A stretch of 28,495 nucleotides of DNA from the NCBI GenBank assembly GCA_044347345.1, contig JBIKUX010000028.1, positions 1-28,495 of the forward strand, read 5' to 3'. Below the pieces are notes generated by a model. It was not told the DNA's origin. It searched no databases and saw nothing but the letters and a program-made list of their open reading frames with translations. This document shows positions 1 to 27,979 of this stretch, piece by piece. How positions within the stretch are numbered: the first letter of the stretch is position 1; each line of letters opens with the position of its first letter. The translations under genes were made by a program, and so were the position numbers. This DNA is from Bdellovibrionota bacterium (GTDB lineage Bacteria > Bdellovibrionota_C > UBA2361 > JBIKUX01).

Positions 1-47
1 ACTTTGTTAGACTGAAGCCGATTCTTTACTGAATCGGCTTTTTTGTT
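1..47 (+). repeat. 47-bp exact direct repeat, copy 1 (element left end, att-adjacent)
   Basis: ACTTTGTTAGACTGAAGCCGATTCTTTACTGAATCGGCTTTTTTGTT is identical to 15755-15801. Confidence 0.95.
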
Positions 48-1580: not shown

Positions 1581-1740
1581 ACTTGTGTTCAGTTTGCAGG
1601 TAGATATCAATGATTAAGTTAGCGAATTGATCTATCTGTTCCTCCTCTGTTAAGAAGTTGATGGTAGTTTCTGCTTCGCTTTTCTTTTTTCGATCTTTTT
1701 GGGTTGCTTCTTTTACATAGGCCTTTCCATTTTGAGCCAT
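1549..1740 (-). CDS. Small hypothetical protein overlapping the recombinase start (candidate directionality/accessory factor)
   Basis: 63-aa ORF, co-oriented, overlaps the recombinase ATG by 32 nt. The role is inferred from position only. Confidence 0.55.
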   Translation of the reverse strand: MAQNGKAYVKEATQKDRKKKSEAETTINFLTEEEQIDQFANLIIDIYLQTEHKYENGKHSNSS

Positions 1741-1795: not shown

Positions 1796-2731
1796 TTAAT
1801 CCTTGGAGCCGGGCTTACCGGAAGTCATTATCTTATTGGTTCTATTAAAATTGATAGTTCGGTTATCTCGTGTACTAATGGTCACCTCTTCATAGTTTTT
1901 CATTCGAAGGATTCTTTTTACTTCTTCAGCTTGATCCGCAGTTATCGTCTGCTTGGTTTGAGTGTCAATGCGGACTATTTTTTCTGATTGTACAACAATG
2001 CGTAACTCTTTTACATTTTTTTTGCGAAGTTCTTTTAGGACAATGCGCTCTTCGTCTTCAAGCAAGTGCGGTATTACAATGTTTGCAAGCTCCTTGTTGT
2101 CAACAAATTCATCTAGTAGTGCCTTTATTGAGATATAGATATGTGGTCTTTCAACATCGGATACTAATTCAGTATGTTTGAAAAACTGTTCGCCTCTCTT
2201 TTCAATCACTTCCCCTTTCGGAAATATTAATATGCCTGCTTCCTTTCCAACGCGGACACACCATATAACAAGGTTTGATAAATAGCTAACATCAAACTTC
2301 AACCCGTATAAGAGCATCTTGTCTCCAAGAATGTACTCAACCTCTGCAAGCACCTGTTCATCCTCTGGCTCACTTATGCCTTTTGCTCTTTTTTCTTCAA
2401 GTTGCTTCTTTAATTCCAGCAGGTTCTTACTAGGTAGTTCATCAAAGTATGCATCTTTAAAAAAGTAATTGGTCACTTTTTCAGTGGAGGCAACTGGATA
2501 ACCCAAAGCCCGCAGATTATCCAGTATTCTTAACCATATAAGTTGCGAGAGGCTCACATTCAGTCCCCAGTCACCTTTTGGGATAAAGGGCAGTAACTTA
2601 TTCCTTCGCCAATAAGGCAAAAATTTATATAGTGATGACTCGCCATCGATGCTCATGAATTTTTCCAGCTCAAAAACAGGCTGGAAGTACTGTTGCTGGA
2701 ACATTTCCAGGGATAATTTTTTGGGAAGCAT
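1796..2731 (-). CDS. Hypothetical protein with MerR-like N-terminal HTH
   Basis: Long ORF; YWRRNKLLPF...LSQLIWLRILDNLRALG resembles a MerR winged HTH. Start moved from 2818 to ATG 2731 because a promoter-like motif lies between them. Confidence 0.65.
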   Translation of the reverse strand: MLPKKLSLEMFQQQYFQPVFELEKFMSIDGESSLYKFLPYWRRNKLLPFIPKGDWGLNVSLSQLIWLRILDNLRALGYPVASTEKVTNYFFKDAYFDELPSKNLLELKKQLEEKRAKGISEPEDEQVLAEVEYILGDKMLLYGLKFDVSYLSNLVIWCVRVGKEAGILIFPKGEVIEKRGEQFFKHTELVSDVERPHIYISIKALLDEFVDNKELANIVIPHLLEDEERIVLKELRKKNVKELRIVVQSEKIVRIDTQTKQTITADQAEEVKRILRMKNYEEVTISTRDNRTINFNRTNKIMTSGKPGSKD

Positions 2732-2775
2732 TTTGCAATTTGGGGTTTTATGTGTTATTTTGTCCAACTTCGATA

Positions 2776-2805
2776 CAAAATTAGGAGTTAAGGTGACATG
2801 GCAAA
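2776..2805 (-). promoter_or_regulatory. Bacteroidetes-type sigma promoter for the leftward core operon
   Basis: Minus strand TTTG (2805-2802), 18 nt, TAATTTTG (2783-2776), close to the TTTG...TAnnTTTG consensus. Confidence 0.5.
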
Positions 2806-2967
2806 AATTATCTTTCAACCCCTTAATCCAGCCGTTCGGTACGGTTCCTGTGCCTACTGCGGCAAGGTTTTTCCCAATTCCAGCTAACTATCCAAAGGAG
2901 ACTGCGAAGCAGGTTAAAGGATAGCCCATATTTGCGAGAACATCAATTTACAATAAAAACAACAACA

Positions 2968-3396
2968 ATGAAACGTAAAACAATCAACACTGCCAATGGC
3001 CCAGCAAAAACCTTTGCACTGGGCCGAGTCTGCCAGCATTGCGGGGAGCCAATTGCCGACCAGGAGCGAGCCTCAAAAACCCACTGCACCAGGTACCGAG
3101 ATGAGTTTGGGGTCATTCACGATTGCAAAAGGCGTAAACATCAACTCAAAACACAGTTGCAAGAGGATGTCCTACTCGATTTCTCAGCCAAACAAAGAGA
3201 GACGAAGCGACAAATTGAAAAAGTAATTGCAGCGCATGGCGATCTAGTCTCCACAGAAGTACTTATTGCGTACAATATAAATCCCGGAGAAAGTATCAGT
3301 TGGCACTATCACTCTGGCCTTCTCTACGCTGAAATGCTGGGATATAAAATAACTTCCAATCCAACACTCAATAATCACAAAATCGAAAAAATATGA
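2968..3396 (+). CDS. Hypothetical protein with Cys-rich zinc-binding motif
   Basis: CQHCGEPI...THC...HDC; ATG 2968 after an A-rich leader preferred over TTG 2932. Confidence 0.65.
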   Translation: MKRKTINTANGPAKTFALGRVCQHCGEPIADQERASKTHCTRYRDEFGVIHDCKRRKHQLKTQLQEDVLLDFSAKQRETKRQIEKVIAAHGDLVSTEVLIAYNINPGESISWHYHSGLLYAEMLGYKITSNPTLNNHKIEKI

Positions 3397-3725
3397 ACTT
3401 ATATGAATACATGGCCGTTGGCCGTAAGCTAAGTAAACAGGATAATCAAAGTAATCAAATTGCAGGCCTTATCGTAACAACTCTTGTTATTGGTGGTTGC
3501 TGGTATATCACCTACCGACTTGCCAACGAACGAGCCAAAAAAATATCATGGCTTAACCACAGTATGGATCAACTAAAAGATCAGCGTAACCAACTAGGTG
3601 AGGCCAATTCCCGGCTCACACAAGAAAATGCTTTGCAAAAGCAGAAAATCCACAACCTTGAGAGAGAGAAGCAATCGTTGGCAAGGCAGTTGAAAGAAAA
3701 ACAAAAACAAGAGCCCGAGGCCTAA
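3393..3725 (+). CDS. Single-TM coiled-coil protein
   Basis: ATGA overlap with the upstream gene; hydrophobic IAGLIVTTLVIGGCWYITY followed by a Q/E/K/L-rich heptad tail. Confidence 0.7.
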   Translation: MNLYEYMAVGRKLSKQDNQSNQIAGLIVTTLVIGGCWYITYRLANERAKKISWLNHSMDQLKDQRNQLGEANSRLTQENALQKQKIHNLEREKQSLARQLKEKQKQEPEA

Positions 3726-3743: not shown

Positions 3744-3888
3744 GTTCCAAATGCGTAGATGCTGTTCCGGGACGGTTTTAAATAACCGTAGTACAACTGT
3801 TCCGGAACGGCGTTTACCGTCCTGGAACTTTCGTAGTCATTCTTACGAGTTCTAAAACTTTCTTGATAGTTCATGGGCGTTCTGGAAC
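3744..3888. repeat. Degenerate 10-bp-periodic repeat tract (consensus GTTCYGGAAC) with a hairpin
   Basis: GTTCCGGGAC 3764, GTTCCGGAAC 3799, GTCCTGGAAC 3819, GTTCTAAAAC 3849, GTTCATGGGC 3869, GTTCTGGAAC 3879; hairpin ACGGTT-N6-AACCGT at 3772-3789. Confidence 0.75.
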
Positions 3889-3930
3889 CTTTTCGCCAGG
3901 GCAAATTTTTAATCTTAAATTTATACTGTC

Positions 3931-4308
3931 ATGAAAAAAGTTAAGTATGGAATAGCGCTTTTTGCTATTGTTTTGGTAGTTACATTCGGTATTATTTCGA
4001 TTGGGAAAATCATTTTTATTAAGTACACTGGCGAAAAGGTAGTGGCTATTATTAGCCAGGTTCCATCATCATGTGATAGGTACAACCATATCAACGTTTT
4101 ATTTAAAGGCGAGGTCTATGAAGTAAGTATAAGCAAAGCCGATTGTCGAGAAGGTTTTTATAAAATAGGCCAAAAAGTAACATTGCTAAAGAATAAAAAA
4201 TATAAAGAGCTCGTATGGCCAGATAGTCAACCCGAATTGTTACCTATCATATTTGCAGGTGTTTTTGTTTTAGCATTTATCAGTATGAAAGGACAGATTA
4301 AAAAATAA
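3931..4308 (+). CDS. Two-TM membrane protein (DUF3592-like architecture), cargo
   Basis: N- and C-terminal TM helices around a small beta-rich domain (YKIGQKVTL); same layout as 5370-5759. Confidence 0.7.
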   Translation: MKKVKYGIALFAIVLVVTFGIISIGKIIFIKYTGEKVVAIISQVPSSCDRYNHINVLFKGEVYEVSISKADCREGFYKIGQKVTLLKNKKYKELVWPDSQPELLPIIFAGVFVLAFISMKGQIKK

Positions 4309-4332
4309 TTGTATCGTAACATTAATTCATTC

Positions 4333-4424
4333 TTACAGCTTCCCCAAAGATCTGCCATTTAGTTGTTACCCAGATTTTAAGCATTTAAACAATTACCATT
4401 ATTCCATGTCGATTGCGAAGTTTG
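4333..4424 (+). repeat. Right-end repeat copy 1 (partial)
   Basis: CAGCTTCCCCAAAGATCTGCCATTTAGTTG...TTATTCCATGTCGATTGCGAAGTTTG aligns with 15607-15701. Confidence 0.9.
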
Positions 4425-4507
4425 AAAACCAGGAAGATAAGCACATCGTAAAAACTTTTATTGATGCCCTCCTTACTAAACAACAATTACAACAACTTGC
4501 ACAATAA
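4421..4507 (+). pseudogene. 3' fragment of an XRE-type regulator gene
   Basis: Reads FENQEDKHIVKTFIDALLTKQQLQQLAQ*, like the C-termini of Bacteroidetes XRE repressors; no start codon. Confidence 0.45.
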
Positions 4508-4510
4508 AAT

Positions 4511-5008
4511 TTAGTTATAAACAAAGGGAATTTTTGACATCCGAATATTTATTTTGCCAGTTACATTTTTATAAAATCCAACGTATGGAAAATCCTGAGT
4601 GTTCACAAGAAAAGAATCTTTGCTATTGTTAATGATTAATGATAGCTTTATTGGCTCGCTAAACTTAGAACATGATATTCTTTGTTCAAAAAAGATAATT
4701 TGACTTTTTGTATTTCCTCGATAAACTTTAATTGTCAAATTTGCTCTTTCATCATTAGAATCGCTTACTAAACTAATATTGTCAAAAACTCGGCAGTTAT
4801 TAATAAATAACTCGGTTTTATCACCTTGAAATCCGCCTTGAAAATGAATTTCAAAGAGTTTATTCTCGTCTATACTAATTTTTTTGCAGGGCATGCAAGA
4901 AAATAAAAATATTATGCTTTGTAAGAAAAGTATTGTCAGCTTCCCCGAAGATCGGCCTGGCTTAAGTGCTTTGACAATCTGTGATTCTGTGAACTTTGAC
5001 TTTTTCAT
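4511..5008 (-). CDS. Chimeric ORF: IS3-type N-terminus + repeat-encoded linker + 5'-truncated lipoprotein
   Basis: MKKSKFTESQIVKALK (IS3 OrfA-like), then PGRSSGKL (antisense of repeat copy 2), then TILFLQSIIFLFSC lipobox and a soluble domain. Confidence 0.6.
   Translation of the reverse strand: MKKSKFTESQIVKALKPGRSSGKLTILFLQSIIFLFSCMPCKKISIDENKLFEIHFQGGFQGDKTELFINNCRVFDNISLVSDSNDERANLTIKVYRGNTKSQIIFFEQRISCSKFSEPIKLSLIINNSKDSFLVNTQDFPYVGFYKNVTGKINIRMSKIPFVYN
4931..4957 (+). repeat. Right-end repeat copy 2 (short)
   Basis: TATTGTCAGCTTCCCCGAAGATCGGCC. Confidence 0.9.
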
Positions 5009-5058
5009 ATTTACCATTTAAAGTTAGCAATTCCGCTAACTTCTAAATGGCACTTTTC
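4958..5058 (-). mobile_element. IS3-family left-end remnant
   Basis: First 16 codons MKKSKFTESQIVKALK plus the upstream hairpin AAGTTAGC-GGAATT-GCTAACTT; rest of the transposase absent. Confidence 0.65.
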
Positions 5059-5123
5059 ACCTCCTTGATAATAACATCATGTTCGGCAAGATTTAAATGA
5101 AAGTACTCGCTAATAATTCGTGC

Positions 5124-5263
5124 TATCAGCTTCCCCGAGGATTGACCATTTAGTTGTTAGCTAAATTTCAAGCATTTAAGTAATTGCCCTTATTCCATGT
5201 CGGTTACGAAGTTTGCAGTTTCAACCAAATCCTTCAATATTTCGTTCGAACTTAGTCCAGCAA
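5124..5263 (+). repeat. Right-end repeat copy 3 (near full length, includes recombinase-tail codons)
   Basis: Colinear with about 15610-15749; minus strand encodes AGLSSNEILKDLVETANFVTDME*. Confidence 0.93.
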
Positions 5264-5369
5264 TACCATGCCAAGCAAAACACTATTATTGCGGTTGGAA
5301 ATACTGCACTATAAATCCAATACATCATAAGATTTTTAAGGGTTGTTGGCCAATCAAAGCTAATTTAGC

Positions 5370-5759
5370 TCATGTTCCTGATTTCATTTTACGCCATTGG
5401 GAGATACTAATACCTATTCCTAATAACCCTAATGCAACAAAGGATAATAAATTCATCATTGCTGATTCATCTGGACGAAGTATTGTTTTTGAACCTTCTA
5501 AAAACTTCATATCAATTAACTCTCCTACGTGATGAGTCTCACAAAAATTTCCTCTCGTTGCTTTATCATAAATTTCTCCTTCGTAACTATACTTCACAAA
5601 ATATCTGACTTTTGTACCGATGGATGATTTTGGTAATTCCTCTATCTTCATTTTAACTATTATGCCATTCCTTTCAACATTCAGTGTTTCATAGTTTGAA
5701 ATAAATAAGATGATAGACCCAATAAAAAAAACTATCCCAGCCACAAACAAAAACTTCAT
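5370..5759 (-). CDS. Two-TM membrane protein (DUF3592-like architecture), cargo
   Basis: TM - beta domain (YFVKYSYEGEIY...HVGELIDMKF) - TM. Confidence 0.7.
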   Translation of the reverse strand: MKFLFVAGIVFFIGSIILFISNYETLNVERNGIIVKMKIEELPKSSIGTKVRYFVKYSYEGEIYDKATRGNFCETHHVGELIDMKFLEGSKTILRPDESAMMNLLSFVALGLLGIGISISQWRKMKSGT

Positions 5760-5805
5760 AATCGTTTAGAATTAAAATTTTATAAGAATTGGTTTTATGG
5801 GCGGG

Positions 5806-6276
5806 CTATTTATCCTCCCTTTTGAAACTATTTACCATTTGTCTGTATCTCGCAATTGCTATTTCAGTTATTGACTTAGTTAACCCTAGCTTGATGCAAC
5901 CTGATACGATAGGTTTCTTATAGCCAGCGTCTGCATAATTTATAGCTAAAACATCCTTAGAAAGAAGTCTGCCAACTGAATCAGCCTCCTTCACTGTTTG
6001 GTAGGAGATTACTTCAATATCTACAAACAAACCATTATCGCCGTTATTGATCATAAATGTTTTGAGACTGTCATTCGTTAATTCATTTATGCAGCCACAT
6101 ATTGCTGCAGCCTTATAACTCTTGACAAAGTCTGTCTTAGAAACATAATAATCAGATTTTTTGAAATTACGTGCGGACGTACAACTATATAAATAAGTTG
6201 AAGCAAATAGTACTATAATTAACACCATTTGATTAACAGCCATGACATTTTTTGTATTTATGATGGGGTTGATCAT
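5806..6276 (-). CDS. Hypothetical lipoprotein, cargo
   Basis: Hydrophobic stretch ending LYSC; internal CGC and C-terminal C. True start may be a downstream Met. Confidence 0.7.
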   Translation of the reverse strand: MINPIINTKNVMAVNQMVLIIVLFASTYLYSCTSARNFKKSDYYVSKTDFVKSYKAAAICGCINELTNDSLKTFMINNGDNGLFVDIEVISYQTVKEADSVGRLLSKDVLAINYADAGYKKPIVSGCIKLGLTKSITEIAIARYRQMVNSFKREDK

Positions 6277-6514
6277 ATGCTACAGCATTTAGAAATCTCA
6301 AACTAAAGATATCTTAATTTATCAAAAAATACCTCTTACTGCCTAGAAAATCCTCTGATGAAAACTCATATCGAGCAAAAGCGATTTCAAATTGCTTTGT
6401 GAAGAAAATTGCCCAGAAATGAGTAACTTATCAACATGAATACTACCGTAAGGGAGAAACCTAGATACAAAGTGATTTATTTTGCTGATTAAATGACAGT
6501 AACCAACTTTTAAT

Positions 6515-6964
6515 ATGAGTGTTAAAAGCTATTTTCTAAGTGTTTTTCTGACAGTAGGCGTACTGTCCAGCTGTTTTTCTCAACAGTTAGTAAAAAAACA
6601 AAGTGATGCAAAGTTTCTTACCGAACAAAAAGAACGCTTTATCAATATGCCGTTAAAAGTTCTTCTAAATGAGATTAAGCCAGCCATAAAATATGCGTAT
6701 GGTGAGGATGCTAAAGACCACGGGAGGCCTGCCTATTTCACGTTTAAATTTGTTACGAAACAACAAAACTATAGCCTTGTTGAGAAGGGAATTGCCCCTA
6801 TTGTAATTTATGTTTATGTAAAGGAAAAATGCATTGATTGGGGTAAATTCAAAAAACTAAAAAAAGAAACATTTACTTCTTGGACAACTGATGACTCTCA
6901 TTTCTATAATAATTTCACCGTAATCAATATAGATGTTTACGGTGAGGCTACTTTTGATGAATGA
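6515..6964 (+). CDS. Hypothetical secreted protein/lipoprotein, cargo
   Basis: Signal peptide MSVKSYFLSVFLTVGVLSSC. Confidence 0.7.
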   Translation: MSVKSYFLSVFLTVGVLSSCFSQQLVKKQSDAKFLTEQKERFINMPLKVLLNEIKPAIKYAYGEDAKDHGRPAYFTFKFVTKQQNYSLVEKGIAPIVIYVYVKEKCIDWGKFKKLKKETFTSWTTDDSHFYNNFTVINIDVYGEATFDE

Positions 6965-6997
6965 AAGATCTTTAACTCAATATCAAAATAGAACTCT

Positions 6998-7210
6998 TTA
7001 GGGTGATACAACCTCAATTACCCCCAGCTTATTCATTGTTATCAAGGTAAGCAGAACAATGATCAAGAAGTAATGCAAGGTGAGCATCCCTTTATCAACC
7101 TTAGGCTTGAAAATTGGATGATTCAAAATGGGAATGTCAATCCACAAGTTGATCAGTCGTAGAGTACTAAGCAATATGATTAAAACGGAAAAGACGGTTA
7201 ACAATGTCAT
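6998..7210 (-). CDS. 70-aa two-TM protein, copy A
   Basis: Near-identical paralog at 12024-12236 with frame kept and many synonymous changes. Confidence 0.7.
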   Translation of the reverse strand: MTLLTVFSVLIILLSTLRLINLWIDIPILNHPIFKPKVDKGMLTLHYFLIIVLLTLITMNKLGVIEVVSP

Positions 7211-7362
7211 ACGGTAATATTCAATCCAAATTTAACAACCCAATTTGAGAGTTAAGACTATTTCAAACCGACCAAACGTTATTTTAAGTAGAATTGTGCG
7301 TGTACTTGTCAAAAATGCGTAGCTATAAATAGCAAAACCTGAAGTTCAAAACCTTTAACTCT

Positions 7363-7764
7363 ATGAAATTACTACCAAGAATTGGCAGTCTACTAACGCT
7401 ATCATTCCTTTTCCTGTTATGCTCCACAAGTGTCAAGGCTCAGGAGGAAAAGCGTTCTGCAATAGCTGACTTCCACATCACTATCCAGAACACCCCAAAT
7501 GGTATTGCTCTCACAAGCTCAAAAGGGAGTGCTTGGGCAACCCTGGAGTTCACCCTTCCTTACGATAAGCCACAAACAATAAATGAGTATGGAATGGCTG
7601 ATCCTGCAAAAGGGCTGGAGAATGGGTCCTACCTGTTCACCATCACAAGGACCCATAGCGGCTTAAAGCTAAAAGGCTTACAGGGTACAGCTTGGATAGA
7701 CTTGGAATTCACGCTTCCCCCTAATAAAGCTCAAAGTATTGACCAGCTGGGAATGGCTATGTAG
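7363..7764 (+). CDS. Secreted protein with internal two-fold repeat, copy A
   Basis: Signal peptide ending VKA-Q; repeated unit GSAWATLEFTLP...INEYGM / GTAWIDLEFTLP...IDQLGM; paralog at 12375-12779. Confidence 0.8.
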   Translation: MKLLPRIGSLLTLSFLFLLCSTSVKAQEEKRSAIADFHITIQNTPNGIALTSSKGSAWATLEFTLPYDKPQTINEYGMADPAKGLENGSYLFTITRTHSGLKLKGLQGTAWIDLEFTLPPNKAQSIDQLGMAM

Positions 7765-7839
7765 TTCGTATTTTAGTTAAAAGCTCTAAATCATGAGATT
7801 CTTTGTCAGAACCACCTTACTCATTATTTTATAAAATTA

Positions 7840-8300
7840 TTGTCATCTAAATTGCGTTTTCGAATAATTATTAAATCAGTTTTTGTGCTATTTTTTCTTT
7901 TTTGTTTAATTCCAATAAAGTCATCATCGCAAAATTTTGATAGTTTACATGTGTATGCGGTTTATATGCATTCAATGTACATAATAAACATGGATAAAGA
8001 TTTAATAAAAAACGAAGTTGATCCGATAAAAATAGAGAATCAGCAAACAGTAAAAGAAATTTATTCTTTTTTAATTAACAATGTAAAAGGATCTTATTTA
8101 AAAAATATTAAAAGTAATTATCTTGATGTGCGACTTACTTTTGAATATTTTAAAAAAATAATAGAATTATTCAAACATTTGGTTTAACACACCTAAAAAC
8201 AATGTTTATAAATAATGAGCTTTATTCATATGATATTAAAAAGCTAAAGCAATTAGATAAATATATTACGGGCTTATCAACAAAATTAGGTGTAAGGTAA
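7840..8300 (+). pseudogene. Secreted protein gene frameshifted at an A7 run
   Basis: ORF stops at 8187; one extra A in 8152-8158 extends it to ...NNRIIQTFGLTHLKTMFINNELYSYDIKKLKQLDKYITGLSTKLGVR* at 8300. Confidence 0.6.
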
Positions 8301-8322
8301 GTGTCAGTTTCAATGATTATCG

Positions 8323-8398
8323 TATTGTCAGCTTCCCTAAAGATCGGCCATTTAGAATTTACTCAGGTTTTAAGCATTAAAGCAGTACTACCTTATTC
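8323..8398 (+). repeat. Right-end repeat copy 4 (partial)
   Basis: TATTGTCAGCTTCCCTAAAGATCGGCCATTTAG...TTAAGCATT...CTTATTC. Confidence 0.9.
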
Positions 8399-8482
8399 TT
8401 TCGTCAAAATGATATTTGTAGGGATATTAAAATCGGGTTCATCAGGGAGGCGTATACCATGTCTTTTCTATGCAGTGATTCG

Positions 8483-9271
8483 TCAATCGTTCGCTTCCCA
8501 GTCGCTATAAGTAAACCAACTCTCTTCCCCAGCTTTCATATAGGCTACAATTCTCTTTTTCGGCTTTTCCATCGTTTTTGTCACTTCATTGTAAACTAAA
8601 GTGTCTCCATTGTCATAAGATATTATTCCTTTTTTGTCACAACAGTCAAGCAATTTGACTTTGATGAAAAACTTTTCTTCATCCCTTGCTGTAATAACGC
8701 CTTTTGCTGTGCAAATGTCATTAACGTATTTGTTTTCCTGTTCCTTTGACACAAAGCCGTTTCGGTAATTGAAAACAACTGTGTCACCAATATTGTAGCT
8801 TGAATATTCATCCTGTTTCAGCTCCAAATCTCGCTTTTTTGCTTTTTCCCAAAAGTCTTGATAGTACTTAATTTGTTCTGTGAGTTTTATATCCTGTCCT
8901 GTTAAATAACGATAATAGCTGTCAAGTATGATGCCCGACATATCATCAGGATGATAAATGCCTCTTTCATTAAAGAACTTCGAAAGTCTTGAACCCTTCC
9001 ATAGTTCCCAGTTGTTTCTCATCCAAATTCCAAAGTTCAAATGCATTCGTGCGGAAAAGTGGTCTTCACTCATCGATTTAATTTTCACTTTACTGCTGTC
9101 CGCAAATATTTTGTCAAGCTGTTTAAGGCAATCATCCAAGTCAATAGGAATGTAAGTCGTGTCTTTTAAGGCTTTTGTATGGGTTTTATTATTGGAACTT
9201 GTCTGTCCATATGAAGGAGTAAGCTGTGTCGCTAAAAACGTTACTAAGAGTATTATAGTCTTATTTGTCAT
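8483..9271 (-). CDS. Secreted protein, DUF6794-like
   Basis: IPIDLDDCLKQLD...HLNFGIWMRNNWELW...GIYHPDDMSGIILDSY motif; signal peptide from MTNKTII (ATG 9271). Confidence 0.75.
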   Translation of the reverse strand: MTNKTIILLVTFLATQLTPSYGQTSSNNKTHTKALKDTTYIPIDLDDCLKQLDKIFADSSKVKIKSMSEDHFSARMHLNFGIWMRNNWELWKGSRLSKFFNERGIYHPDDMSGIILDSYYRYLTGQDIKLTEQIKYYQDFWEKAKKRDLELKQDEYSSYNIGDTVVFNYRNGFVSKEQENKYVNDICTAKGVITARDEEKFFIKVKLLDCCDKKGIISYDNGDTLVYNEVTKTMEKPKKRIVAYMKAGEESWFTYSDWEAND

Positions 9272-9412
9272 TGTGCTCAAGGTTTCTGGGCTTTGTGTTC
9301 GTAGCGGACACAGAATTCCCAAAGCTTGGGTTAAGATATACAGCTAAATTGAAAAATATATATTCATTCTATGTTTGTCCGTCTACATGATGCAAAACCC
9401 ATATTACCAGCC
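9272..9412 (-). other. Degenerate attC-like integron cassette recombination site
   Basis: Long imperfect inverted repeat: GGGCTTTG (9288) / CAAAACCC (9393) and GTAGCGGACA (9301) / TGTCCGTCTAC (9376) with one unpaired base; fills the gap between a stop and the next ATG. Confidence 0.6.
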
Positions 9413-9416
9413 CGTG

Positions 9417-10040
9417 TTATTTGGGATAACAAGCTGCTTCTGCTTCTTTAAGAGTTCTTCCTTTTCTGTCAAACAACAGCGTCAATTTTGTTTCAAAGGC
9501 CGGAACTGCAATTTCTCAACCCCAATCATTTGGAATTGATGGAATGTGCTCGCTAAGTCGCTTTTGAAACTGATACCAGCCTGGCGTGCTTTCAGTCAGC
9601 CGTAATGAGGCACTGTCACTGATAAAAATGTCCATGCAAATTTCATCTGTCGTGAAGCGGTCTTCTTTAAACCCAAATATAGTGTCGAAGTCTGCCCACC
9701 TATAAGATTTAACTCCACTATTCTCTGCCATGATAAAGCCGCGTTCAGTGTAGGAGAAAAAGCCCAAACTTTCCTGCTCCCTGTGAAACTGTTCAGCCAA
9801 TATCTTTTTGCCAAGTTTTGTGTCTTGTGTCACGAAAAGTTTTTTGGGATTGAGTAGGCGAGCCATTAAGAAAAGTCCAATACCGCCGAAAAAGGTGAGT
9901 GCAGCCCAGAAAGAGAATGAAGAAGACTTGCCTCTTGTATAAATAATGGCTACAACGAATAGAAAGTTCAAAACGATTAATCCAACTTGCTTTTGTTTGC
10001 TCTCCCAAATCACCCTCTTGTCATTATAGGTTGGTTGCAT
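9417..10040 (-). pseudogene. Membrane protein gene with a premature TGA at 9516-9518
   Basis: Frame continues past TGA: DWG*EIAVPAFETKLTLLFDRKGRTLKEAEAACYPK* to 9417; ATG 10040 directly follows the upstream stop. Confidence 0.65.
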
Positions 10041-10041
10041 G

Positions 10042-10674
10042 TTATGGGTTCTTAAATAATGCAAATAAGTCCTTTTTACTTTTACCCATCAAATCCTTTA
10101 CACCTTCTTTTTGAATTTTATCAAACTCGGTGTAAGATGGCAATGAGTCATAAAGTGTCTGTAGTAACTTATTAGCCTGTTTTGTGTCATCAAGATAAAT
10201 TAAGTTGATTGCTTTATTCGTCATCAATAATACAAAGTCTCTATTTGTTTTCTGCATTGTGTCCAGTACTTCGTTGCAAATTGACAACGACTTGTCGAAA
10301 TATTTTTTTGCAGAAATTGTATCGCCTAGTTGAAATGATAATATACCGCTTTGCAAATAAAGATCATGTGCATTTGGGCAGAGCTGTATCAATTTAATAT
10401 TTGTCTTAAGAGCTTTGTCAAACTGTTTTAGCTGATAATAGAACATCAATTTATTAGAATGCCCGAGAAAATAATTGCTATCTATCTGTGTGGCCTTCTC
10501 GAGAAGTGTAAGTGCCTTCTTTGCGCTATCGAAATTGTCAATATATGCAACTAGTGCCATCGCCTGATTGTTATACTGTACTGCAGCAGGATCAGGTTTC
10601 TGTCTCTCAGTAGTCTTACCACACGAGGCGAGTACTGTCAATATAAGTCCAACTAAAATCTTGGTGAGTGTCAT
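10042..10674 (-). CDS. TPR-repeat lipoprotein, cargo
   Basis: Lipobox LASC; TPR-like helices (ALTLLEKATQIDSNY, AKKYFDKSL). Confidence 0.8.
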   Translation of the reverse strand: MTLTKILVGLILTVLASCGKTTERQKPDPAAVQYNNQAMALVAYIDNFDSAKKALTLLEKATQIDSNYFLGHSNKLMFYYQLKQFDKALKTNIKLIQLCPNAHDLYLQSGILSFQLGDTISAKKYFDKSLSICNEVLDTMQKTNRDFVLLMTNKAINLIYLDDTKQANKLLQTLYDSLPSYTEFDKIQKEGVKDLMGKSKKDLFALFKNP

Positions 10675-10700
10675 TATTTTAAGCCAGAGTTATGTGTACG

Positions 10701-11261
10701 TTATTCGGTCGCCAAATTATAGCTATCAGTCGTCTTATCGTATTGTACTTTGATTAAATCACTTTTACTTACTTTCATTTTTCTATCAATTGTCAATAAG
10801 CCGTTGATATAAATATTACTTTCGTCACTTACATGCCTAGTGAGTTTTGTCGAAAGAAATTCAGTCAATGTAACTGCATCAGTAAGTCCTTTTATAAGTT
10901 CTATGATAATAATACCGCGTTTTGCAATGTCTCCAAAGAATGGTCGACCGCTGTTACACTTTATAACAGTAAGTGACTTTACATTTTTGTTTTCAGTAAA
11001 CTTTTTGGCTGTCACAGTAGAAAGTAGCACATTGTCTTTTGTTAAGTAAATTGGCTTGTCTGTTGAATTGAGTGCTCTTGAATTGATTGCAAGTGTGTCG
11101 CCGTTTGTCTTGACAAGATTACCACAGAAGTCTGTCCAACAGTCATTACACTCAACTACTCTGTCACCAATAACATACCTTTTAATATTTGATGTATCGA
11201 TATTTTGTCCAAACGTAAAAGTTGAAGCTAAAAGTATTGTTATGGTTAGAAGCTCTTTCAT
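10701..11261 (-). CDS. Hypothetical secreted protein, cargo
   Basis: Signal peptide MKELLTITILLASTFTFG-Q from ATG 11261. Confidence 0.7.
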   Translation of the reverse strand: MKELLTITILLASTFTFGQNIDTSNIKRYVIGDRVVECNDCWTDFCGNLVKTNGDTLAINSRALNSTDKPIYLTKDNVLLSTVTAKKFTENKNVKSLTVIKCNSGRPFFGDIAKRGIIIIELIKGLTDAVTLTEFLSTKLTRHVSDESNIYINGLLTIDRKMKVSKSDLIKVQYDKTTDSYNLATE

Positions 11262-11534
11262 AATAATGCACAACTTATTTATTGGTCCTACTTTCACATC
11301 CCTAGACAATCAATTCCTTGTGCATAGGTCTGTAATTTTTTCTTGTTGTAATTTATTATAAATCGTCGAATGGGCCTAGAAATTGTTGCAAATTTTGGAC
11401 TAATAGTGGACAAAAGCCCTTAGAAAGGTCTAATTAAAGCTTCTGTAATTTACTCAAAGAATATCCTTTACCTCATAGGTAGTCCACCAAATCTAATTAC
11501 ACATGGACCAAACATAGTTTCGGGGCTAAATTGT

Positions 11535-11891
11535 TTAACTATTTATTACTTCTTCATCTAATCGTCCTGCCAATACAGCTTTTTCAAGGTGTGTTATCGT
11601 TAATTCTTTTGTTTGTCGCCTCTGCTTTCCTGTAACCATTCTTATTATAGCACGAAGTATCGGTTCTCCTTCATCATCAAAGTACTCATCTATTTTAAAT
11701 TTACTAACATCTACTTTAAACTCATTCCCAAAAGCTATTAAAAACTTATCTGCGTCATCACCATTGATTTTTAAATCTTCTTTTATTCTCGTATTAATGC
11801 CAATTTCCTTTTCTTCAAATAAGGGTAATGTTATTCCCCATCCACTTCCCAATAAAAAGGACTTTAGCTTATTAAAAACCTCATTATTCAT
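11535..11891 (-). CDS. DUF1493-like (acyl-carrier-like) protein
   Basis: TRIKEDLKINGDDADKFLIAFGNEFKVDVSKF...YFDDEG...LTITHLEKAVLAGRL pattern. Confidence 0.7.
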   Translation of the reverse strand: MNNEVFNKLKSFLLGSGWGITLPLFEEKEIGINTRIKEDLKINGDDADKFLIAFGNEFKVDVSKFKIDEYFDDEGEPILRAIIRMVTGKQRRQTKELTITHLEKAVLAGRLDEEVINS

Positions 11892-12023
11892 TAATTATTT
11901 TTTAGTGAACCTGATGTCTTTTGTAATTGTTCCTAAAAGGTTTAAGCCTATTAAAATATTATACTTCCTCCAAATTTAGCCCAAATCTCCTTGAGTTTGT
12001 GGCAGCTATTCAAAAGGAATGTT

Positions 12024-12236
12024 TTAGGGTGATACAACCTCAATCACCCCCAGCTTATTCATTATTATCAAGGTAAGCAGAACAATGATCAAAAAGTAAT
12101 GCAAGGTGAGCATTCCTCTATCAACCTTAGGCTTGAAAATAGGATGATTCAATAAAGGAATATTAATCCACAAGTTGATCAGTCGTAGAGCACTAAGTAA
12201 TATGATTAGAACGGAAAAGACTGTTAGCAATGTCAT
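12024..12236 (-). CDS. 70-aa two-TM protein, copy B
   Basis: Paralog of 6998-7210. Confidence 0.7.
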   Translation of the reverse strand: MTLLTVFSVLIILLSALRLINLWINIPLLNHPIFKPKVDRGMLTLHYFLIIVLLTLIIMNKLGVIEVVSP

Positions 12237-12374
12237 ACAGTAATATTCAATCCAAATTTAATAACCCAATTCGAGAGTTAAGACTATTTCACACCGACCA
12301 AACGTTATTTCGAATAGAGGCATGCAAAAACTTGCCAGAAATTCGTAGCTTCAGAGAGCAAAACCTTTTATAGT

Positions 12375-12779
12375 ATGAACTTACTACCAAGAATTAGCAG
12401 CTTACTTTTGCTCTCATTCCTTTTCCTGTTAAGCACCACTAGTGTCAAGGCTCAGGAGGAAAAGCGCCCTGCAATTGCTGATTTTCACATCACTATCCAG
12501 AACACCCCAAATGGTATTGCTCTCACAAGCTCAAAAGGGAGTGCTTGGGTAACCTTGGAGTTCACCCTTCCTTACGATAAGCCACAAACGATAAATGAGT
12601 ATGGAATGGCTGATCCTGTGAAAGGGCTGGAGAATGGGTCTTATCTGTTCACCATCACTAGGACCCAAAGTGGCATAAAGCTTAAAGGTTTACAGGGTAC
12701 AGCCTGGATAGACTTGGGGTTCTCAATTCCTTCTAGCAAAGCTCAAAGTATTGACCAGCTGGGGATGATTATACACTAG
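12375..12779 (+). CDS. Secreted protein with internal two-fold repeat, copy B
   Basis: Paralog of 7363-7764. Confidence 0.8.
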   Translation: MNLLPRISSLLLLSFLFLLSTTSVKAQEEKRPAIADFHITIQNTPNGIALTSSKGSAWVTLEFTLPYDKPQTINEYGMADPVKGLENGSYLFTITRTQSGIKLKGLQGTAWIDLGFSIPSSKAQSIDQLGMIIH

Positions 12780-12883
12780 TTGAGACGAAAAATAATATGC
12801 CAAAAACCAAGTGTCTCAAAAAGTTCATCAAATATTAATATAATTGAAGGCAGCGTACAAATGGCATCAAAATTAATCACATT

Positions 12884-13552
12884 ATGACTAATCAAGAGTG
12901 GTTCCGAGGCCCTGAATGGGATAAAGAAACTCAGGATTTATTTGAAAATAAACTTAAAAAGTCAAGGGGGAGTTATAACAAATCTCAGTATATTTTAATC
13001 AAAGGAGGATATTTATTGCGCTCAAAAGACATAGTTAAAGAGTCTGAAGGGTGCAGATTAATGGGAAGGCTAATTAATGAATTTCCCAAAGAAACATCTC
13101 ATGTAATGTCTGCATATGAACAGTTGGGAGATTATTACTTTTCCAAAAGTGAATATGAAAAGGCAGAATTCAACTACCGAAGTAGTATATCATACTACAA
13201 GAATAATGGCAGAAGTGGCTCAAGTGGCATTGGAGACATTAAATTAGCGGAGACCATCATTAATGCAGGCAAATCTGATGTTTACCTTGAATTATATAAG
13301 CTTTTAACAGATCAATTCAGACAGACAAAAGGTCAGTTAATACTAAATGATGAGATATTTAGACATTATTCAGCTTTGGCAAAAATTTGTATTGCATTAG
13401 AAAAAAAAGAAGAAGCTAAAGAATATGCTCGAAAAGCATTACGATTAGCTGAAATTAAAGAGCCACAATTAGACAACTATCTGCAAATGGGCATTATTAA
13501 GGTTAGTAAAGACGAGTTAACAAAGTTGAATGACATTTTAAACGATCATTAA
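12884..13552 (+). CDS. Cytoplasmic TPR-like protein, cargo
   Basis: AYEQLGDYYFSKSEYEKAEFNYR and ALAKICIALEKKEEAKEYARKAL helices. Confidence 0.75.
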   Translation: MTNQEWFRGPEWDKETQDLFENKLKKSRGSYNKSQYILIKGGYLLRSKDIVKESEGCRLMGRLINEFPKETSHVMSAYEQLGDYYFSKSEYEKAEFNYRSSISYYKNNGRSGSSGIGDIKLAETIINAGKSDVYLELYKLLTDQFRQTKGQLILNDEIFRHYSALAKICIALEKKEEAKEYARKALRLAEIKEPQLDNYLQMGIIKVSKDELTKLNDILNDH

Positions 13553-13581
13553 TATACGACGAGAAGCATCTTTTTAGTATA

Positions 13582-13809
13582 ATGAATAAGCATAGAAAAA
13601 TATTACACATAACACTAATTGGCTTATGTTGTGCAACCTTTAGAAAATTAGAGTATGGTCCTTTAAAGATTACATTATTCATTCTTTTATCAAGTGTCGT
13701 AATTCAACAGTTCTTATACACTTTTAATTCCGAAACTTCTGACAAAAACCTAAAGCTTACGTCATCCATTAAAAATGAAGTTTTAAAGTCCATCCTAATA
13801 GTTTTTTAG
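13582..13809 (+). CDS. Small hydrophobic ORF, possibly a decayed membrane protein gene
   Basis: 75-aa ORF with hydrophobic segments just downstream of 13552. Confidence 0.35.
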   Translation: MNKHRKILHITLIGLCCATFRKLEYGPLKITLFILLSSVVIQQFLYTFNSETSDKNLKLTSSIKNEVLKSILIVF

Positions 13810-13868
13810 AGGTATTCTTAATTTATATTATCTACTTTTTATCAACGGAATTATTGAAAAAGTAGCAG

Positions 13869-13896
13869 TGTCAGCTTCCCCGTAGATCGGCCATTT
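13869..13896 (+). repeat. Right-end repeat copy 5 (short)
   Basis: TGTCAGCTTCCCCGTAGATCGGCCATTT. Confidence 0.9.
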
Positions 13897-14056
13897 GCTG
13901 TTCTTCATTTATACGGGTCTTTACTTTTGGGAGACTTTGGTTTTTTTGATAATTTTCCTGTTATAAATTTTGAAATAGTGCAAAGCTATTTCAGGACAAG
14001 ACACAGGAATCTTACAAAAAGCTTGAGAGACAATAAAACCAATATTAAACCTGAGA

Positions 14057-14803
14057 ATGTTACTGCCAAAGAGAAATAAAGTGATTAGGATACTATTTAT
14101 TTTTGTATTTCTATGTTTTATTTTTTCTTGTAACTTCTTTACCAATAAACAAGAAACGCAGGAAAATAATCAGGAAGCAAATTTATATTTGAATAAAGGA
14201 ACTTATCTTTTAGATGAAGATACTGAAACTCCTCGCTATGACTCTGCAATTATTTATTTAGAAAAAGCATCAGCTTTGGGCAGTTCTAATGCTGACAGAA
14301 TACTTGCTGAACAGTATTATTTTGGATATAAAATTAATGCTGATACAATTAAAGCAAAAGAGCATATAGAAAAAGCAATATGGAGAGATGATAGTTTAAT
14401 TTATGTTACGCTTGCGAAAATTAATTATTATAAAGGAGAGATTGATTCTTCTATTGAGTCCTTAAAAAAAGGAGATAGTAAGTACAGTAGTTATGAGCTA
14501 TCGCAATTGCTTATTTCAGGATATGCGTTTGGTCAACCTGACCCGATTTATAAGGATAAGATAAACATAAAAGAAGGATTAAAATATCTTATTAAAAGTG
14601 CAGAAAATGGTCATTTTGAGGCACAGCAAAGTTTATCATATTATTATTTAAAAGGGATAAATAACCTTTTAATAATAGATACTTCAAAAGCTAAATATTA
14701 TTACGAAAAAGCATTAAATAATTCAGCGGTTAAAGAAATTCCAGGTGCAATGGATGAATTACAGGAATTGAACAAGAGCTTCAATCGTACAGCTCAGAAC
14801 TAA
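14057..14803 (+). CDS. Sel1-like repeat lipoprotein, cargo
   Basis: Lipobox IFSC; YLEKASALGSSNADRILAEQYYFG and YLIKSAENGHFEAQQSLSYYYLKG repeats. Confidence 0.8.
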   Translation: MLLPKRNKVIRILFIFVFLCFIFSCNFFTNKQETQENNQEANLYLNKGTYLLDEDTETPRYDSAIIYLEKASALGSSNADRILAEQYYFGYKINADTIKAKEHIEKAIWRDDSLIYVTLAKINYYKGEIDSSIESLKKGDSKYSSYELSQLLISGYAFGQPDPIYKDKINIKEGLKYLIKSAENGHFEAQQSLSYYYLKGINNLLIIDTSKAKYYYEKALNNSAVKEIPGAMDELQELNKSFNRTAQN

Positions 14804-14960
14804 AGATTCTTCTTGTCCTGCGTCTTACATCTTTGATAAAACTCTCTGTAGACTTCTGTCTTTGATTTGTTTCCATAATCTTTCTTTTTTAGGTTAAAAA
14901 ATTGGGAAACACTATCTTAAATTACTAAATTAGTGGTACACTTTATGCTGAAAGTTTACA
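14793..14960 (-). mobile_element. IS left-end remnant (IS3/IS481-like transposase N-terminus)
   Basis: Minus strand starts TGTAAACTTTCAGCATAAAGTGTACCACT at 14960; ATG 14876 gives METNQRQKSTESFIKDVRRRTRRIFSSE and the similarity then stops. Confidence 0.6.
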
Positions 14961-15016
14961 ACAGTTGGTGCATTATTATCAATAATTATTCTACTAAAAA
15001 AATAATTTGTCAGGTT

Positions 15017-15580
15017 TTGAAAAAGTTATTTCCTTATATTATTTACGGTTTATTCTTTTGTATTTCTATATTTTGCTTTATAAAGTACGATAGTGAAAGA
15101 TTTGATTATGGCTGGCAATGTAATTTTTGTAATAAAAAACTGCCGTATAATTTAGTACATAAATTTTATGATGATTCTCCACTAAATTTTGTTTTGATTG
15201 ATGAGGATGATTTTGAACTGGCTGGGGTTGGATTTAAATACTATACCAATAGCTTCACAATCAAAGATTTTTTAGGTTACGGTTACAATGATACTTCTAT
15301 AATTTTGAAATGCACAGACAGCCTAAACGCAATCAAATACCTAATTTCATACCAAAAAAAGTATAGGAGCAAAAAAGGCAATCCCGAAATAAGTTTCAAG
15401 GATTTAAGCAATAGTGATTTTGAAAAGGTAAACGAGAAATACAGTTGGGTTGTATTTAGTCAGGAAGAAGCCCAAAAAGTTACTTTTAAAAGGTTTTTAT
15501 CATTCATTGGAGCTTTACTCGCATTAATTTTAATCGCTTGGAGATTATTTAAGTTAAGAAGCAATAAAGTTGGCAACTAG
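15017..15580 (+). CDS. Two-TM membrane protein, cargo
   Basis: N- and C-terminal TM segments. The ORF-track start 14933 lies inside the IS remnant; TTG 15017 (MKKLFPY) preferred. Confidence 0.65.
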   Translation: MKKLFPYIIYGLFFCISIFCFIKYDSERFDYGWQCNFCNKKLPYNLVHKFYDDSPLNFVLIDEDDFELAGVGFKYYTNSFTIKDFLGYGYNDTSIILKCTDSLNAIKYLISYQKKYRSKKGNPEISFKDLSNSDFEKVNEKYSWVVFSQEEAQKVTFKRFLSFIGALLALILIAWRLFKLRSNKVGN

Positions 15581-15606
15581 GTGGCTGTTTGTCATTCATT
15601 AATATC

Positions 15607-15756
15607 TATTGTCAGCTTCCCAGAAAATCGGCCATTTAGTAGTTTGCTAAATTCCAAGTATTTAAGCAATTACTCTTATTTCATGTCGGTTGCGAAGTTT
15701 GCTGCTTCAACCAAATCCATCAATATCTCGTTCGAACTCAGTCCAGCAAAGGGCAC
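15607..15756 (+). repeat. Right-end repeat copy 6 = functional right end (attR-like) of island 1
   Basis: Full unit from TATTGTCAGCTTCCCAGAAAATCGGCCATTTAG to TCAGTCCAGCAAAGGGCAC. Confidence 0.9.
15676..15756 (-). other. Detached 3' end of the recombinase gene (26 codons + stop)
   Basis: VPFAGLSSNEILMDLVEAANFATDMK*; in frame with the recombinase when base 1 is superimposed on 15755. Confidence 0.8.
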
Positions 15757-15801
15757 TTTGTTAGACTGAAGCCGATTCTTTACTGAATCGGCTTTTTTGT
15801 T
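15755..15801 (+). repeat. 47-bp exact direct repeat, copy 2 (with terminator hairpin 15769-15798)
   Basis: Identical to 1-47. Confidence 0.95.
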
Positions 15802-15808
15802 GTTTTCA

Positions 15809-16354
15809 TCAATCAGTCCAACGTCCACCAGCTGCCACCCATTGCTCAATGACCTGTCGGTCAGATAATGGAATCAAACCCGTGGAAGGCATAGTGGATG
15901 GGACTCCCAAGACGGCTCGCTGAAAGATACGTTCCTTACTTACGATAACAGAGCAAGAGTCAGTCAGGTCAATTCCTGCATGCGGATTATTACCGCTATG
16001 GCAGTTGCTGCAATATCTTTTTAATACCGGCATGACTGTCAAAAAACGAGGTCCAGGCATTTGATGTACAATAGTAATCAGCGTATCAGTTGTACAGGCT
16101 CCATCACTGTAGAGTACCACCGGATATTGCCCGAAATGCAATCCTTGAATTATGCTATCACCCCAACGATTAATAGAGGGCATATATATCTTACCCTTAA
16201 AGTTCTTCAGAATAATTTTTCCATTTGCACAACCCGAGTCGACAAAACTGCCTCCCCAGGTGAAGCTTCGGTCGCAGATTGGCGAGTGCTTATTCTTCTG
16301 GCAAGAAATCAGCACAAAAAATACAAAGAAAAGAAGTGTGGAACGACCGTACAT
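15809..16354 (-). CDS. Lipoprotein with C-terminal c-type cytochrome domain
   Basis: Lipobox LISC; CSNCH haem motif; distal MP and IEQWVAAG ending. Confidence 0.8.
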   Translation of the reverse strand: MYGRSTLLFFVFFVLISCQKNKHSPICDRSFTWGGSFVDSGCANGKIILKNFKGKIYMPSINRWGDSIIQGLHFGQYPVVLYSDGACTTDTLITIVHQMPGPRFLTVMPVLKRYCSNCHSGNNPHAGIDLTDSCSVIVSKERIFQRAVLGVPSTMPSTGLIPLSDRQVIEQWVAAGGRWTD

Positions 16355-27864: not shown

Positions 27865-27945
27865 CTATATATCAGGCGATCCAAATTTTGAGGCATTTAC
27901 TAAATCTTTAAGTATCTCGTTCGAACTCAGTCCAGCAAAGGGCAC
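27865..27945 (-). repeat. Right end (attR-like) of island 2 with a homologous recombinase tail
   Basis: 33 bp (27913-27945) identical to 15724-15756; minus strand reads VPFAGLSSNEILKDLVNASKFGSPDI*. Confidence 0.88.
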
Positions 27946-27979
27946 AAAGCCCCCAACACGAAGTGTTGAGGGCTTTTTT
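27946..27979 (+). terminator. Intrinsic terminator, probably the original one downstream of the target tRNA
   Basis: AAAGCCCCCAACAC-GAA-GTGTTGAGGGCTTT followed by Ts, immediately after GGGCAC. Confidence 0.7.

Follow-up and report, generated by a model that had tools for sequence, protein, structure and literature searches.

Repeated right ends carrying an IS3-family fossil in a probable composite tRNA-Leu island of serine-recombinase elements from a Bdellovibrionota bacterium

In the composite islands of the staphylococcal cassette chromosome (SCC) and in the accretion of integrative and conjugative elements (ICEs) with cis-mobilisable elements in streptococci, recombinase-less elements lie in tandem with a recombinase-bearing one at a single chromosomal site, with attachment-site (att) direct repeats between them. 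The SCC enzymes are large serine recombinases (LSRs). Integration can also act on the recombinase gene itself: SSV-type archaeal tyrosine integrases carry attP within the integrase gene, and mycobacteriophages such as BPs use an integration-dependent switch. Tycheposons of Prochlorococcus, in the accessible text of their preprint (bioRxiv 10.1101/2020.12.28.424599), integrate in tandem at tRNA genes and leave behind partial att or tRNA copies and degenerate elements; 910 of the 937 use tyrosine recombinases and 27 use a large serine recombinase, and fragmented integrases were seen. The accessible part of the rAID-1 report (10.1101/471110) defines those arrays by their 5' XerD-like tyrosine recombinase of at least 44% identity, at least two co-directional downstream genes with a GC content of at most 41%, and cargo homologous to interbacterial immunity genes. 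Here, we describe the LSR and the repeat array of a 28,495-nt window, the complete contig JBIKUX010000028.1 (C62) of a Bdellovibrionota genome (G000; 68 contigs, 2.53 Mb). A first-pass annotation had proposed an undescribed, integron- or rAID-like capture platform organised by six copies of a 30-nt motif. Our analysis replaces that claim with a concrete, testable anatomy: positions 1-27945 are probably a composite tRNA-Leu island of related LSR elements stacked at one site, with ends tagged by the fossil of an IS3-family insertion sequence (IS).

The left end of the window holds the recombinase gene and the genes that travel with it.

Positions 1..50, + strand: P' half of the attachment site (attL), a hairpin and T-run inside the recombinase 3' end, 98% identical to 15755-15804.
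Positions 3..1610, - strand: large serine recombinase gene (PF00239 at 6.2e-26, PF07508 at 1.5e-07), with no stop before the contig start.
Positions 1796..3725, no single strand: element backbone, with genes of 340 aa (-), 154 aa (+) and 110 aa (+), conserved beside the recombinase.

Protein families were searched in Pfam and NCBIfam, and RNAs with Rfam and ARAGORN. Its two Pfam domains and its length, 536 aa on the contig versus ~561 aa typical among 2031 homologs, place the enzyme among large serine recombinases of ~500-600 aa (resolvase, recombinase, and zinc-ribbon type), an assignment scored on the first two of these domains. The three backbone genes match no Pfam or NCBIfam family, and they adjoin the recombinase in L017, L018, L019, L020, L022, L023, and L025. 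The contigs of L017, L018, L019, and L023 stop at or within ~450 nt of their last backbone gene (p154 or p110), as expected if cargo varies within populations.

In 10 of 12 related loci, the recombinase gene is followed immediately on its 3' side by a tRNA-Leu gene (CAG, GAG, or TAA) on the opposite strand; the remaining two contigs end within the recombinase gene. The hairpin of window 1-50 is found between tRNA-Leu and the rest of the recombinase gene in 10 related loci, and its arms covary among the relatives (gccgattc/gaatcggc, ggcgattc/gagtcgcc, ggtgattc/gagtcacc). The window starts at the exact 3' end of the tRNA, with the tRNA-Leu gene itself off the contig, and loose ends of contigs from lake metagenomes read tRNA 3' end, GGGCAC, and P'. 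Because relatives show tRNA-Leu and the same hairpin at this position, we conclude that the contig probably begins at the attL of a tRNA-Leu island. The hairpin itself has 10 bp and a T-run within the recombinase coding region at window 14-46 and 15768-15800 and in L016-L027, with double changes (cc..gg, gc..gc, gt..ac), and it looks like a terminator supplied by the element for tRNA-Leu.

The other half of the attachment site lies at the far side of the array, where the sequence can be read as the missing 3' end of the recombinase gene.

Positions 15668..15756, - strand: ancestral right arm, comprising the last 26 recombinase codons of the excised circle and the P half of attP.
Positions 15757..15804, + strand: remnant P' half of a neighbouring element, consisting of the final 15 codons of a second recombinase gene (100% over 15 aa by tblastn).
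Positions 27884..27979, + strand: older right-arm remnant, with arm 27884-27945 (tail VPFAGLSSNEILKDLVNASKFGSPDI) meeting another kind of terminator hairpin at GGGCAC; family D7.

On the minus strand, the recombinase frame carries on through the 50-nt repeat into 15756-15680, where it gives VPFAGLSSNEILMDLVEAANFATDMK and reaches a stop at 15680-15682. In the circle, the gene would end in a conserved tail of 24-26 residues (VPFAGLSSNEIL...), seen in the window (1-1610 plus 15668-15756), L066, L070, L075, and the homologs P0011 and P0026, the last two of which end in VPFAG(M/I)SS..IEAEL. BLAST with the arm found a copy in G093 that is 82% identical to 15668-15756, has no IS-like part ahead of it and a terminator hairpin behind it, and encodes VPFAGLSSNEILIGLVEVVNFACA; two arms in G094 encode VPFDSLSSNELAQDLMDILELDWK. 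Since the tail is in frame across the repeat and relatives have similar tails, the recombinase gene spans attP, and integration swaps its last 26 codons. Once the element is integrated, the gene is predicted to read into the antisense of the tRNA instead of the attP tail, and in relatives it does run into an antisense tRNA-Leu. Tail counts rest on 120 listed homologs among the 2031 found. By regular expression, 95 of these 120 have a tRNA-antisense tail (e.g., VPKTGFEPA, the antisense of the tRNA T-arm) and four an attP-type tail, which is clear in P0011 and P0026 and loose in P0073 and P0092. This arrangement resembles the SSV integrases and BPs in that integration cuts an element gene at attP, so that the product differs between the free and integrated forms. 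It differs from both in that the enzyme is a bacterial serine recombinase and that the last 26 codons alone would be exchanged, for a tRNA-antisense tail. No paper in the literature searched describes a serine recombinase gene spanning attP at a tRNA, which is not proof of absence.

The geometry of the two half-sites locates the crossover. In serine integrases, according to the accessible text of Rutherford et al. (PMC3783163), a motif lies 5 bp nearer the centre in attB than in attP. In the arm, GTTCGAACTCAGTCC lies 6 nt from GGGCAC, and in the tRNA, GTTCGAATCCAGTCC lies 1 nt from it; the shared tRNA-like motif GTTCGAAYYCAGTCC is therefore displaced by 5 bp between the arm and the tRNA-Leu of relatives, the shift described for attP and attB. 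Moreover, 14-nt arms, TCAGTCCAGCAAAG and CTTTGTTAGACTGA, flank GGCA as inverted repeats with 12 of 14 positions matching. This att geometry puts the crossover at or in GGGCAC, ~147 nt to the right of the 30-nt motif, and the motif bears no resemblance to the recombinase half-sites.

Searching the window with the 30-mer at up to 3 mismatches gave matches at 8326, 13869, and 15610, where 0 were expected (100 shuffles). Looser searches (up to 7/30 mismatches) added 4333 and 5124, and a repeat finder added a 27-nt copy at 4931 (families D3, D4, and D6).

Positions 4333..4424, + strand: arm copy M1, an IS3 left-end fossil (~58 nt) followed by the first ~34 nt of the ancestral right arm, truncated on the right side.
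Positions 4931..5053, - strand: decayed IS3-family element, with its right inverted repeat (M2, 4931-4957), orfA start (5017 to 4967), and left-repeat remnant (5046-5053).
Positions 5124..5263, + strand: arm copy M3, an IS3 fossil followed by the ancestral arm minus its last 7 nt and the crossover, 86% identical to 15612-15749.
Positions 8326..8397, + strand: arm copy M4, an IS3 fossil followed by ~13 nt of the ancestral arm.
Positions 13869..14004, + strand: copy M5, a 30-nt IS3 inverted-repeat tip followed by a distinct 106-nt Q arm.
Positions 15610..15667, + strand: IS part of copy M6, comprising the left inverted repeat of an IS3-family element with its subterminal region, preserved as a fossil on the outer side of the present right arm.

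Much of what the first-pass annotation had seen in these copies holds. All six are on the + strand and confined to the island, with no copy elsewhere in the 68-contig, 2.53-Mb genome. Their rightward homology of ~92 nt (4333), 27 nt (4931), 140 nt (5124), 72 nt (8326), 30 nt (13869), and 147 nt (15610) agrees with the reported range of 27 to 150 bp. The four long copies (4333, 5124, 8326, and 15610) are 71-86% identical in pairs, in keeping with the mutual divergence reported, and the DNA to the left of their tips is, as claimed, unrelated or has at most ~12 AT-rich nt in common. Their assignment as the element's right end is also borne out by the arm described above. The statement that the left boundary falls just after a cargo stop is correct for the open reading frames (ORFs) ending at 4308, 13809, and 15580; at 8300, no ORF of at least 60 aa stops, and the nearest stop is at 8187. 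Two further copies were found beyond the original six, an inverted remnant at 5046-5053 and a right-part-only copy at 27884-27945. The motif as a genome-wide miniature inverted-repeat transposable element was rejected, with no copy off the island in G000 and none in a further 90 genomes of the order or 123 of the class, although these genomes are mostly fragmented and repeats may be missing from their assemblies. The arm was also considered as a tRNA, tmRNA, or other known RNA and rejected: ARAGORN found no gene in the window. An Rfam match to RT-11 at 14202-14362 is at chance level (E 0.065; 26.5 bits versus a gathering score of 143.5).

Judged from its sequence, the 30-nt motif derives from an IS3-family IS, of which it forms the left terminal inverted repeat. 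Seven IS3 left ends, located upstream of orfA homologs in other genomes, align with it in register and have the TG tip, CCCC, GAAAA, GG, CA, and AGTTAG in common with it, and the IS left end in L029 aligns likewise; the seven come from 12 inspected loci, L054, L058, L059, L060, and L064 having been left out when the tip was not recognised by eye. Local alignment of the IS left end with the arms scores 58, versus 15.7 +/- 3.1 for shuffles (0 of 500 reaching 58), and beyond the first ~50 nt the two show no significant homology. Relatives of the motif-linked orfA occur in 18 of 124 genomes, with a best identity of 55-56%. The locus shares with the IS3 family the 5'-TG tip, the CCCC/GAAAA/GG/CA series, the subterminal AGTTAG, and an orfA (HTH_Tnp_1) beginning ~60-80 nt inside the end. 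Unlike a typical IS3 element, it retains ends only, without orfB, a frameshift site, or a demonstrable target duplication. The copies of the motif are also confined to one island. For annotation, the lesson is that an IS tip, and not a recombination site, can lie behind a sharply bounded repeat in an island.

Metagenomic variants of the same island clarify the copy at 4931. A scan of metagenomes with a degenerate 24-mer pattern returned 13 loci, eight of which were kept as island pieces; the other five (L030, L032, L036, L037, and L040) had only the degenerate 24-mer in common and were dropped as chance matches. In L029, which is 97% identical to window 4961-5751, the position of window 5046-5053 is occupied by a full inverted motif, 62 nt upstream of orfA (MKKSKFTESQIVKALKEHESGRSAKDVCRELGVS...; PF01527 at 8.4e-14, NCBIfam IS3 at 1.4e-5). 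This is the only longer IS copy; its orfA is frameshifted and then interrupted by another, complete IS3 element, and no reference has the two flanks of the window copy joined in one piece. The interrupting element (L029 472-1690) is a distinct member of the IS3 family, with orfA (PF01527), orfB (rve), and TGACC... inverted repeats, inserted in the decayed orfA. In the window, where IS ends alone survive, the first 17 orfA codons (5017 down to 4967) run directly into 4931-4957, and for this reason that copy is assigned as the right inverted repeat of the same decayed IS. In L031, 62 nt stand in place of window 4934-6128, and the start of a lipoprotein gene (MKGILFLQSIIFLFSC) is uninterrupted up to the exact TG tip at 4933/4934, which confirms the earlier claim that this copy cuts a gene start. 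We take the copies at 4931 and 13869 to be ends of other IS3 copies. The 30-nt tip is all that the copy at 13869 has in common with the arms, and its whole unit recurs in L033 after a Sel1 gene, 92.6% identical. The Q arm (window 13899-14004 and L033 2509-2613) has 106 nt and sharp ends (...GACAC), and it could derive from the inner part of an IS3 right end. The sequence behind its second copy in L033 resembles a P' half; this assignment was rejected, with no recombinase remnant there.

The four long copies have more than an IS end in common. M1, M3, M4, and M6 switch from IS sequence (58 nt) to the non-IS arm at an identical junction, and of that arm they keep ~34, 82, 13, and 89 nt, respectively. 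Because this IS/arm junction is the same in each, they are copies of one composite arm and not separate IS ends. This result bears on the view that IS3 activity shuffled the island, each copy being an independent IS3 transposase junction (one-ended or aberrant transposition, adjacent deletion, or an excision scar) with the recombinase merely anchoring the island. That account draws on the identity of the motif as an IS3 inverted repeat, on the 4931 junction that falls exactly on the TG tip when compared with L031, and on further tip-only remnants at variant junctions: a 19-nt remnant of the tip marks a new junction in L039, and in L033 a second 13869 unit and a new gene follow the Sel1 gene, before 10982-11436. 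All five solo ends keep the left tip without an IS body on the right, and the DNA to the left of each tip is unrelated. However, independent junctions do not explain why four copies pass at one point from 58 nt of IS into 13-89 nt of arm, an arm that occurs IS-free in G093. The copies also differ by 14-29%, unlike the products of recent transposition of one IS, and the genome holds neither a right-end partner nor an intact IS. We consider IS3-driven shuffling unlikely.

Stacking of island ends is further suggested by the junctions on the right side of the arms. The region 15610-15804, a complete M6 followed by 48 nt of P', forms an attP-like P-X-P' junction at 15756, where two neighbouring elements meet. 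In L038, this arm and its cargo (95.5% identical) are followed not by P' but by a native-type terminator, and this flank is 76% identical to window 27914-28077. At the far end of the window, the arm ending at 27945 joins a hairpin that we take to be the native flank of the tRNA-Leu site. The island thus has direct arm copies at 4333, 5124, 8326, 15610, and 27884 with one recombinase at 3-1610, a P-X-P' junction between neighbours, and a junction of P, X, and native flank at its far end. The internal copies M1, M3, and M4 have lost the crossover. M3 stops 7 nt short of it, reading ...CAGCAA before passing into TACC, where M6 reads ...CAGCAAAGGGCAC.

Arm cores occur in relatives' genomes as well, three of which have two each. 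The two are separated by 1864 nt in G093:C1 and by 1407 nt in G094:C17, where they lie ~22-24 kb from that contig's LSR, the L022 recombinase. In G095:C19 the spacing is 943 nt, and one core is a P-X-P' remnant. Single cores are present in G092:C14 and G094:C4. The IS part is absent from every core found. A strict tRNA-like pattern for right ends had returned true tRNA-Leu genes only in five relatives; whole-arm BLAST then found the arms. Two other repeats were seen in related loci. The cargo of a distant relative (L022 957-7111) holds four to five copies of a unit spaced by ~1.0-2.6 kb, often ~1.7 kb, which is probably a paralogous gene array. Beside the target tRNA-Leu of L020 (11602-11861), a duplication of 94 nt (83% identity) takes in the tRNA's 5' part together with the region upstream of it.

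The repeated arms could also have arisen by duplication and unequal crossing-over within one island, together with exchange between strains, without separate integrations. A two-gene module that is present twice at 91% identity, with a third variant in L039, and the many alternative joints of lake contigs that lie away from the motif would fit such a process. Internal duplication does not readily account for arms that are 71-86% identical with unrelated flanks, for a P-X-P' junction and a native-flank arm, which are products of site-specific events, or for paired scars that recur in unrelated genomes. We judge it very unlikely.

The population data also bear on the capture platform, in which the serine recombinase would take up cassettes at the 30-nt motif. 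Joints were read from contigs of four lake runs, one of which (X1) is possibly the window's own source, and their sides are short. Cargo order differs between metagenomic contigs, as the first-pass annotation had anticipated, and several island pieces are rearranged. The joint 8357 to 3850 is the only one at a motif copy, and most lie away from the motif. It links a truncated arm to the backbone tail, as accretion with deletion predicts. Another joint connects 3881 to 13972, and both fall in a palindrome run at the edge of the backbone.

Positions 3745..3890, no strand: run of GTTCCGGAAC-like palindromes at the backbone/cargo boundary.

This palindrome cluster before the first cargo gene may be an operator, an origin, or a transfer site. 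Joints from 15756 to 19963/19964 have sides of 21-29 letters and were treated as unreliable, and a loose end behind 15756 (AAAGCCCCC...) may come from the 27884 copy, which lies outside the mapped stretch.

The capture model can point to six co-oriented copies between cargo genes, confined to one island, to the varying cargo order, and to the single joint at 8357. The locus resembles integrons and, as far as the accessible rAID-1 text goes, rAID-1 arrays in that a recombinase lies beside small, low-GC, mostly unassigned genes with a repeated intergenic sequence. The array has a GC content of 33.7%, versus 41.1% for the backbone and 40.2% for the genome, and so falls under the rAID-1 cut-off. 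Some cargo has repeat-protein or DUF families of the kind that text reports among immunity genes. Cargo families matched in Pfam are DUF6794, DUF1493, TPR, and Sel1 only; 13 of 19 cargo and backbone ORFs have no Pfam family, and NCBIfam gave nothing specific. However, integrons and rAID-1, as described there, use tyrosine recombinases, co-directional genes, and a site in every spacer, whereas this locus has a serine enzyme, genes in mixed orientation, and a motif that is an IS end. The recombinase (PF00239, PF07508) is neither an IntI-type nor a XerD-like tyrosine recombinase. ORFs between 3931 and 15580 use both strands, so the genes are not co-directional as in rAID-1, nor are they co-oriented cassettes behind one promoter. 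Instead of an attC-type palindrome, the copies, read directly, have a 4-bp CTTC/GAAG stem only, lost in three of the six. The half-sites and crossover lie ~147 nt to the right of the motif and are unlike it, the right extents of the copies range from 27 to 147 nt, and M3 ends before the crossover. No excision between motif copies was seen. With the recombinase site located away from the motif and missing from the internal copies, with genes in mixed orientation, and with motif-free arms in relatives, an integron-like platform is now extremely improbable. What is supported of the earlier proposal is successive acquisition, as tandem accretion tied to an LSR; capture at the motif is not.

The composite-island reading can be set out as a series of steps, in which we infer the order of events, the deletions, and the entry of a second element into the site. 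The first 40-58 bases of the repeat, which include the 30-nt motif, are an IS3 left end that became a fossil on the outer side of the right arm. The next 89 bases are the true arm, namely the last 26 LSR codons of the circle and the P half of attP. M1, M3, M4, and M6 would be the right ends of four related elements that integrated in turn at a single site, with the youngest beside the tRNA and the older ones pushed outward. Later deletions would have taken each internal crossover, recombinase, and backbone, fusing old cargo to the single element that still holds a recombinase. The resulting architecture is tandem accretion with decay, a known kind.

Several observations weigh against this reconstruction. 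No recombinase or backbone remnants lie between the arms, and of older recombinase genes only the 15-codon piece at 15757-15801 is left in the window. Because the arms are not separated by such remnants, each deletion would have to start inside a 150-nt arm and take the whole 3.9-kb module, and internal deletions of this kind need an unnamed bias. Canonical LSRs recombine attP x attB only, according to general knowledge and the accessible text of PMC3783163, so that entry into an occupied site needs another route, such as attP x attL, multimers, or homologous recombination. The IS-tagged arm is known from this population alone (eight of the 13 metagenome loci, all the same island) and is absent from 123 other genomes of the class. 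No intact IS with motif ends (TGTCAGCTTCCCC...) was found in G000 or among orfA relatives in 124 genomes, and unrelated DNA to the left of the tips would equally fit independent transposition junctions. Finally, the comparisons rest entirely on contigs, whether from metagenome-assembled genomes or from metagenomes.

Compared with the described accretion systems, the island is closest in kind to tycheposons, with which, as far as their accessible text goes, it shares a tRNA site, newcomers that displace older elements, variable cargo, and heterogeneous populations. It differs from them in its serine enzyme and in having no recombinase fragments between the scars, which consist of the recombinase gene's 3' end and an IS3 fossil. 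In SCC and ICE accretion, internal repeats keep the crossover, whereas here it is lost in three of four internal arms and the target is a tRNA gene. These features delineate a widespread LSR family at tRNA genes, in which the gene spans attP, the element carries what looks like its own tRNA terminator, and islands would grow by stacking. LSRs owe their use in genome engineering to their strict directionality, and the attP-type junctions and paired scars that a natural family leaves in several genomes prompt one to ask how occupied sites come to be re-used. A broader proposal would make this family the serine counterpart of accretion platforms, with the tail swap at attP in the gene as an integration switch, re-use of occupied sites (attP x attL) in contrast to canonical serine integrases, stacking of cargo at tRNA genes, and later joint mobilisation. 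We regard this broader proposal as quite unlikely.

Other repeats and genes of the island were also recorded. The two-gene module (70 aa, -; 133 aa, +; no family) lies at 6981-7646 and 12007-12658, and its third variant, at L039 1-198, is ~79% identical. To the right of the P-X-P' junction, 15805-27883 encodes a cytochrome c peroxidase, a PhoX-like protein, a metallophosphoesterase, MerC, an ABC transporter with DUF3526 permeases, and a CobW GTPase. Its GC content swings between 32% and 43%, and by position it is older island cargo. A 135-nt repeat at 19819-19953 and 27974-28108 is 86-88% identical, with just two copies in the genome, each after a terminator-like flank. It folds at -41.9 kcal/mol, has no Rfam match, and shows a contig depth several-fold above its surroundings in the four lake runs. 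This repeat may be a conserved small RNA or simply a repeat, and its copy near 19800 may mark another old island boundary.

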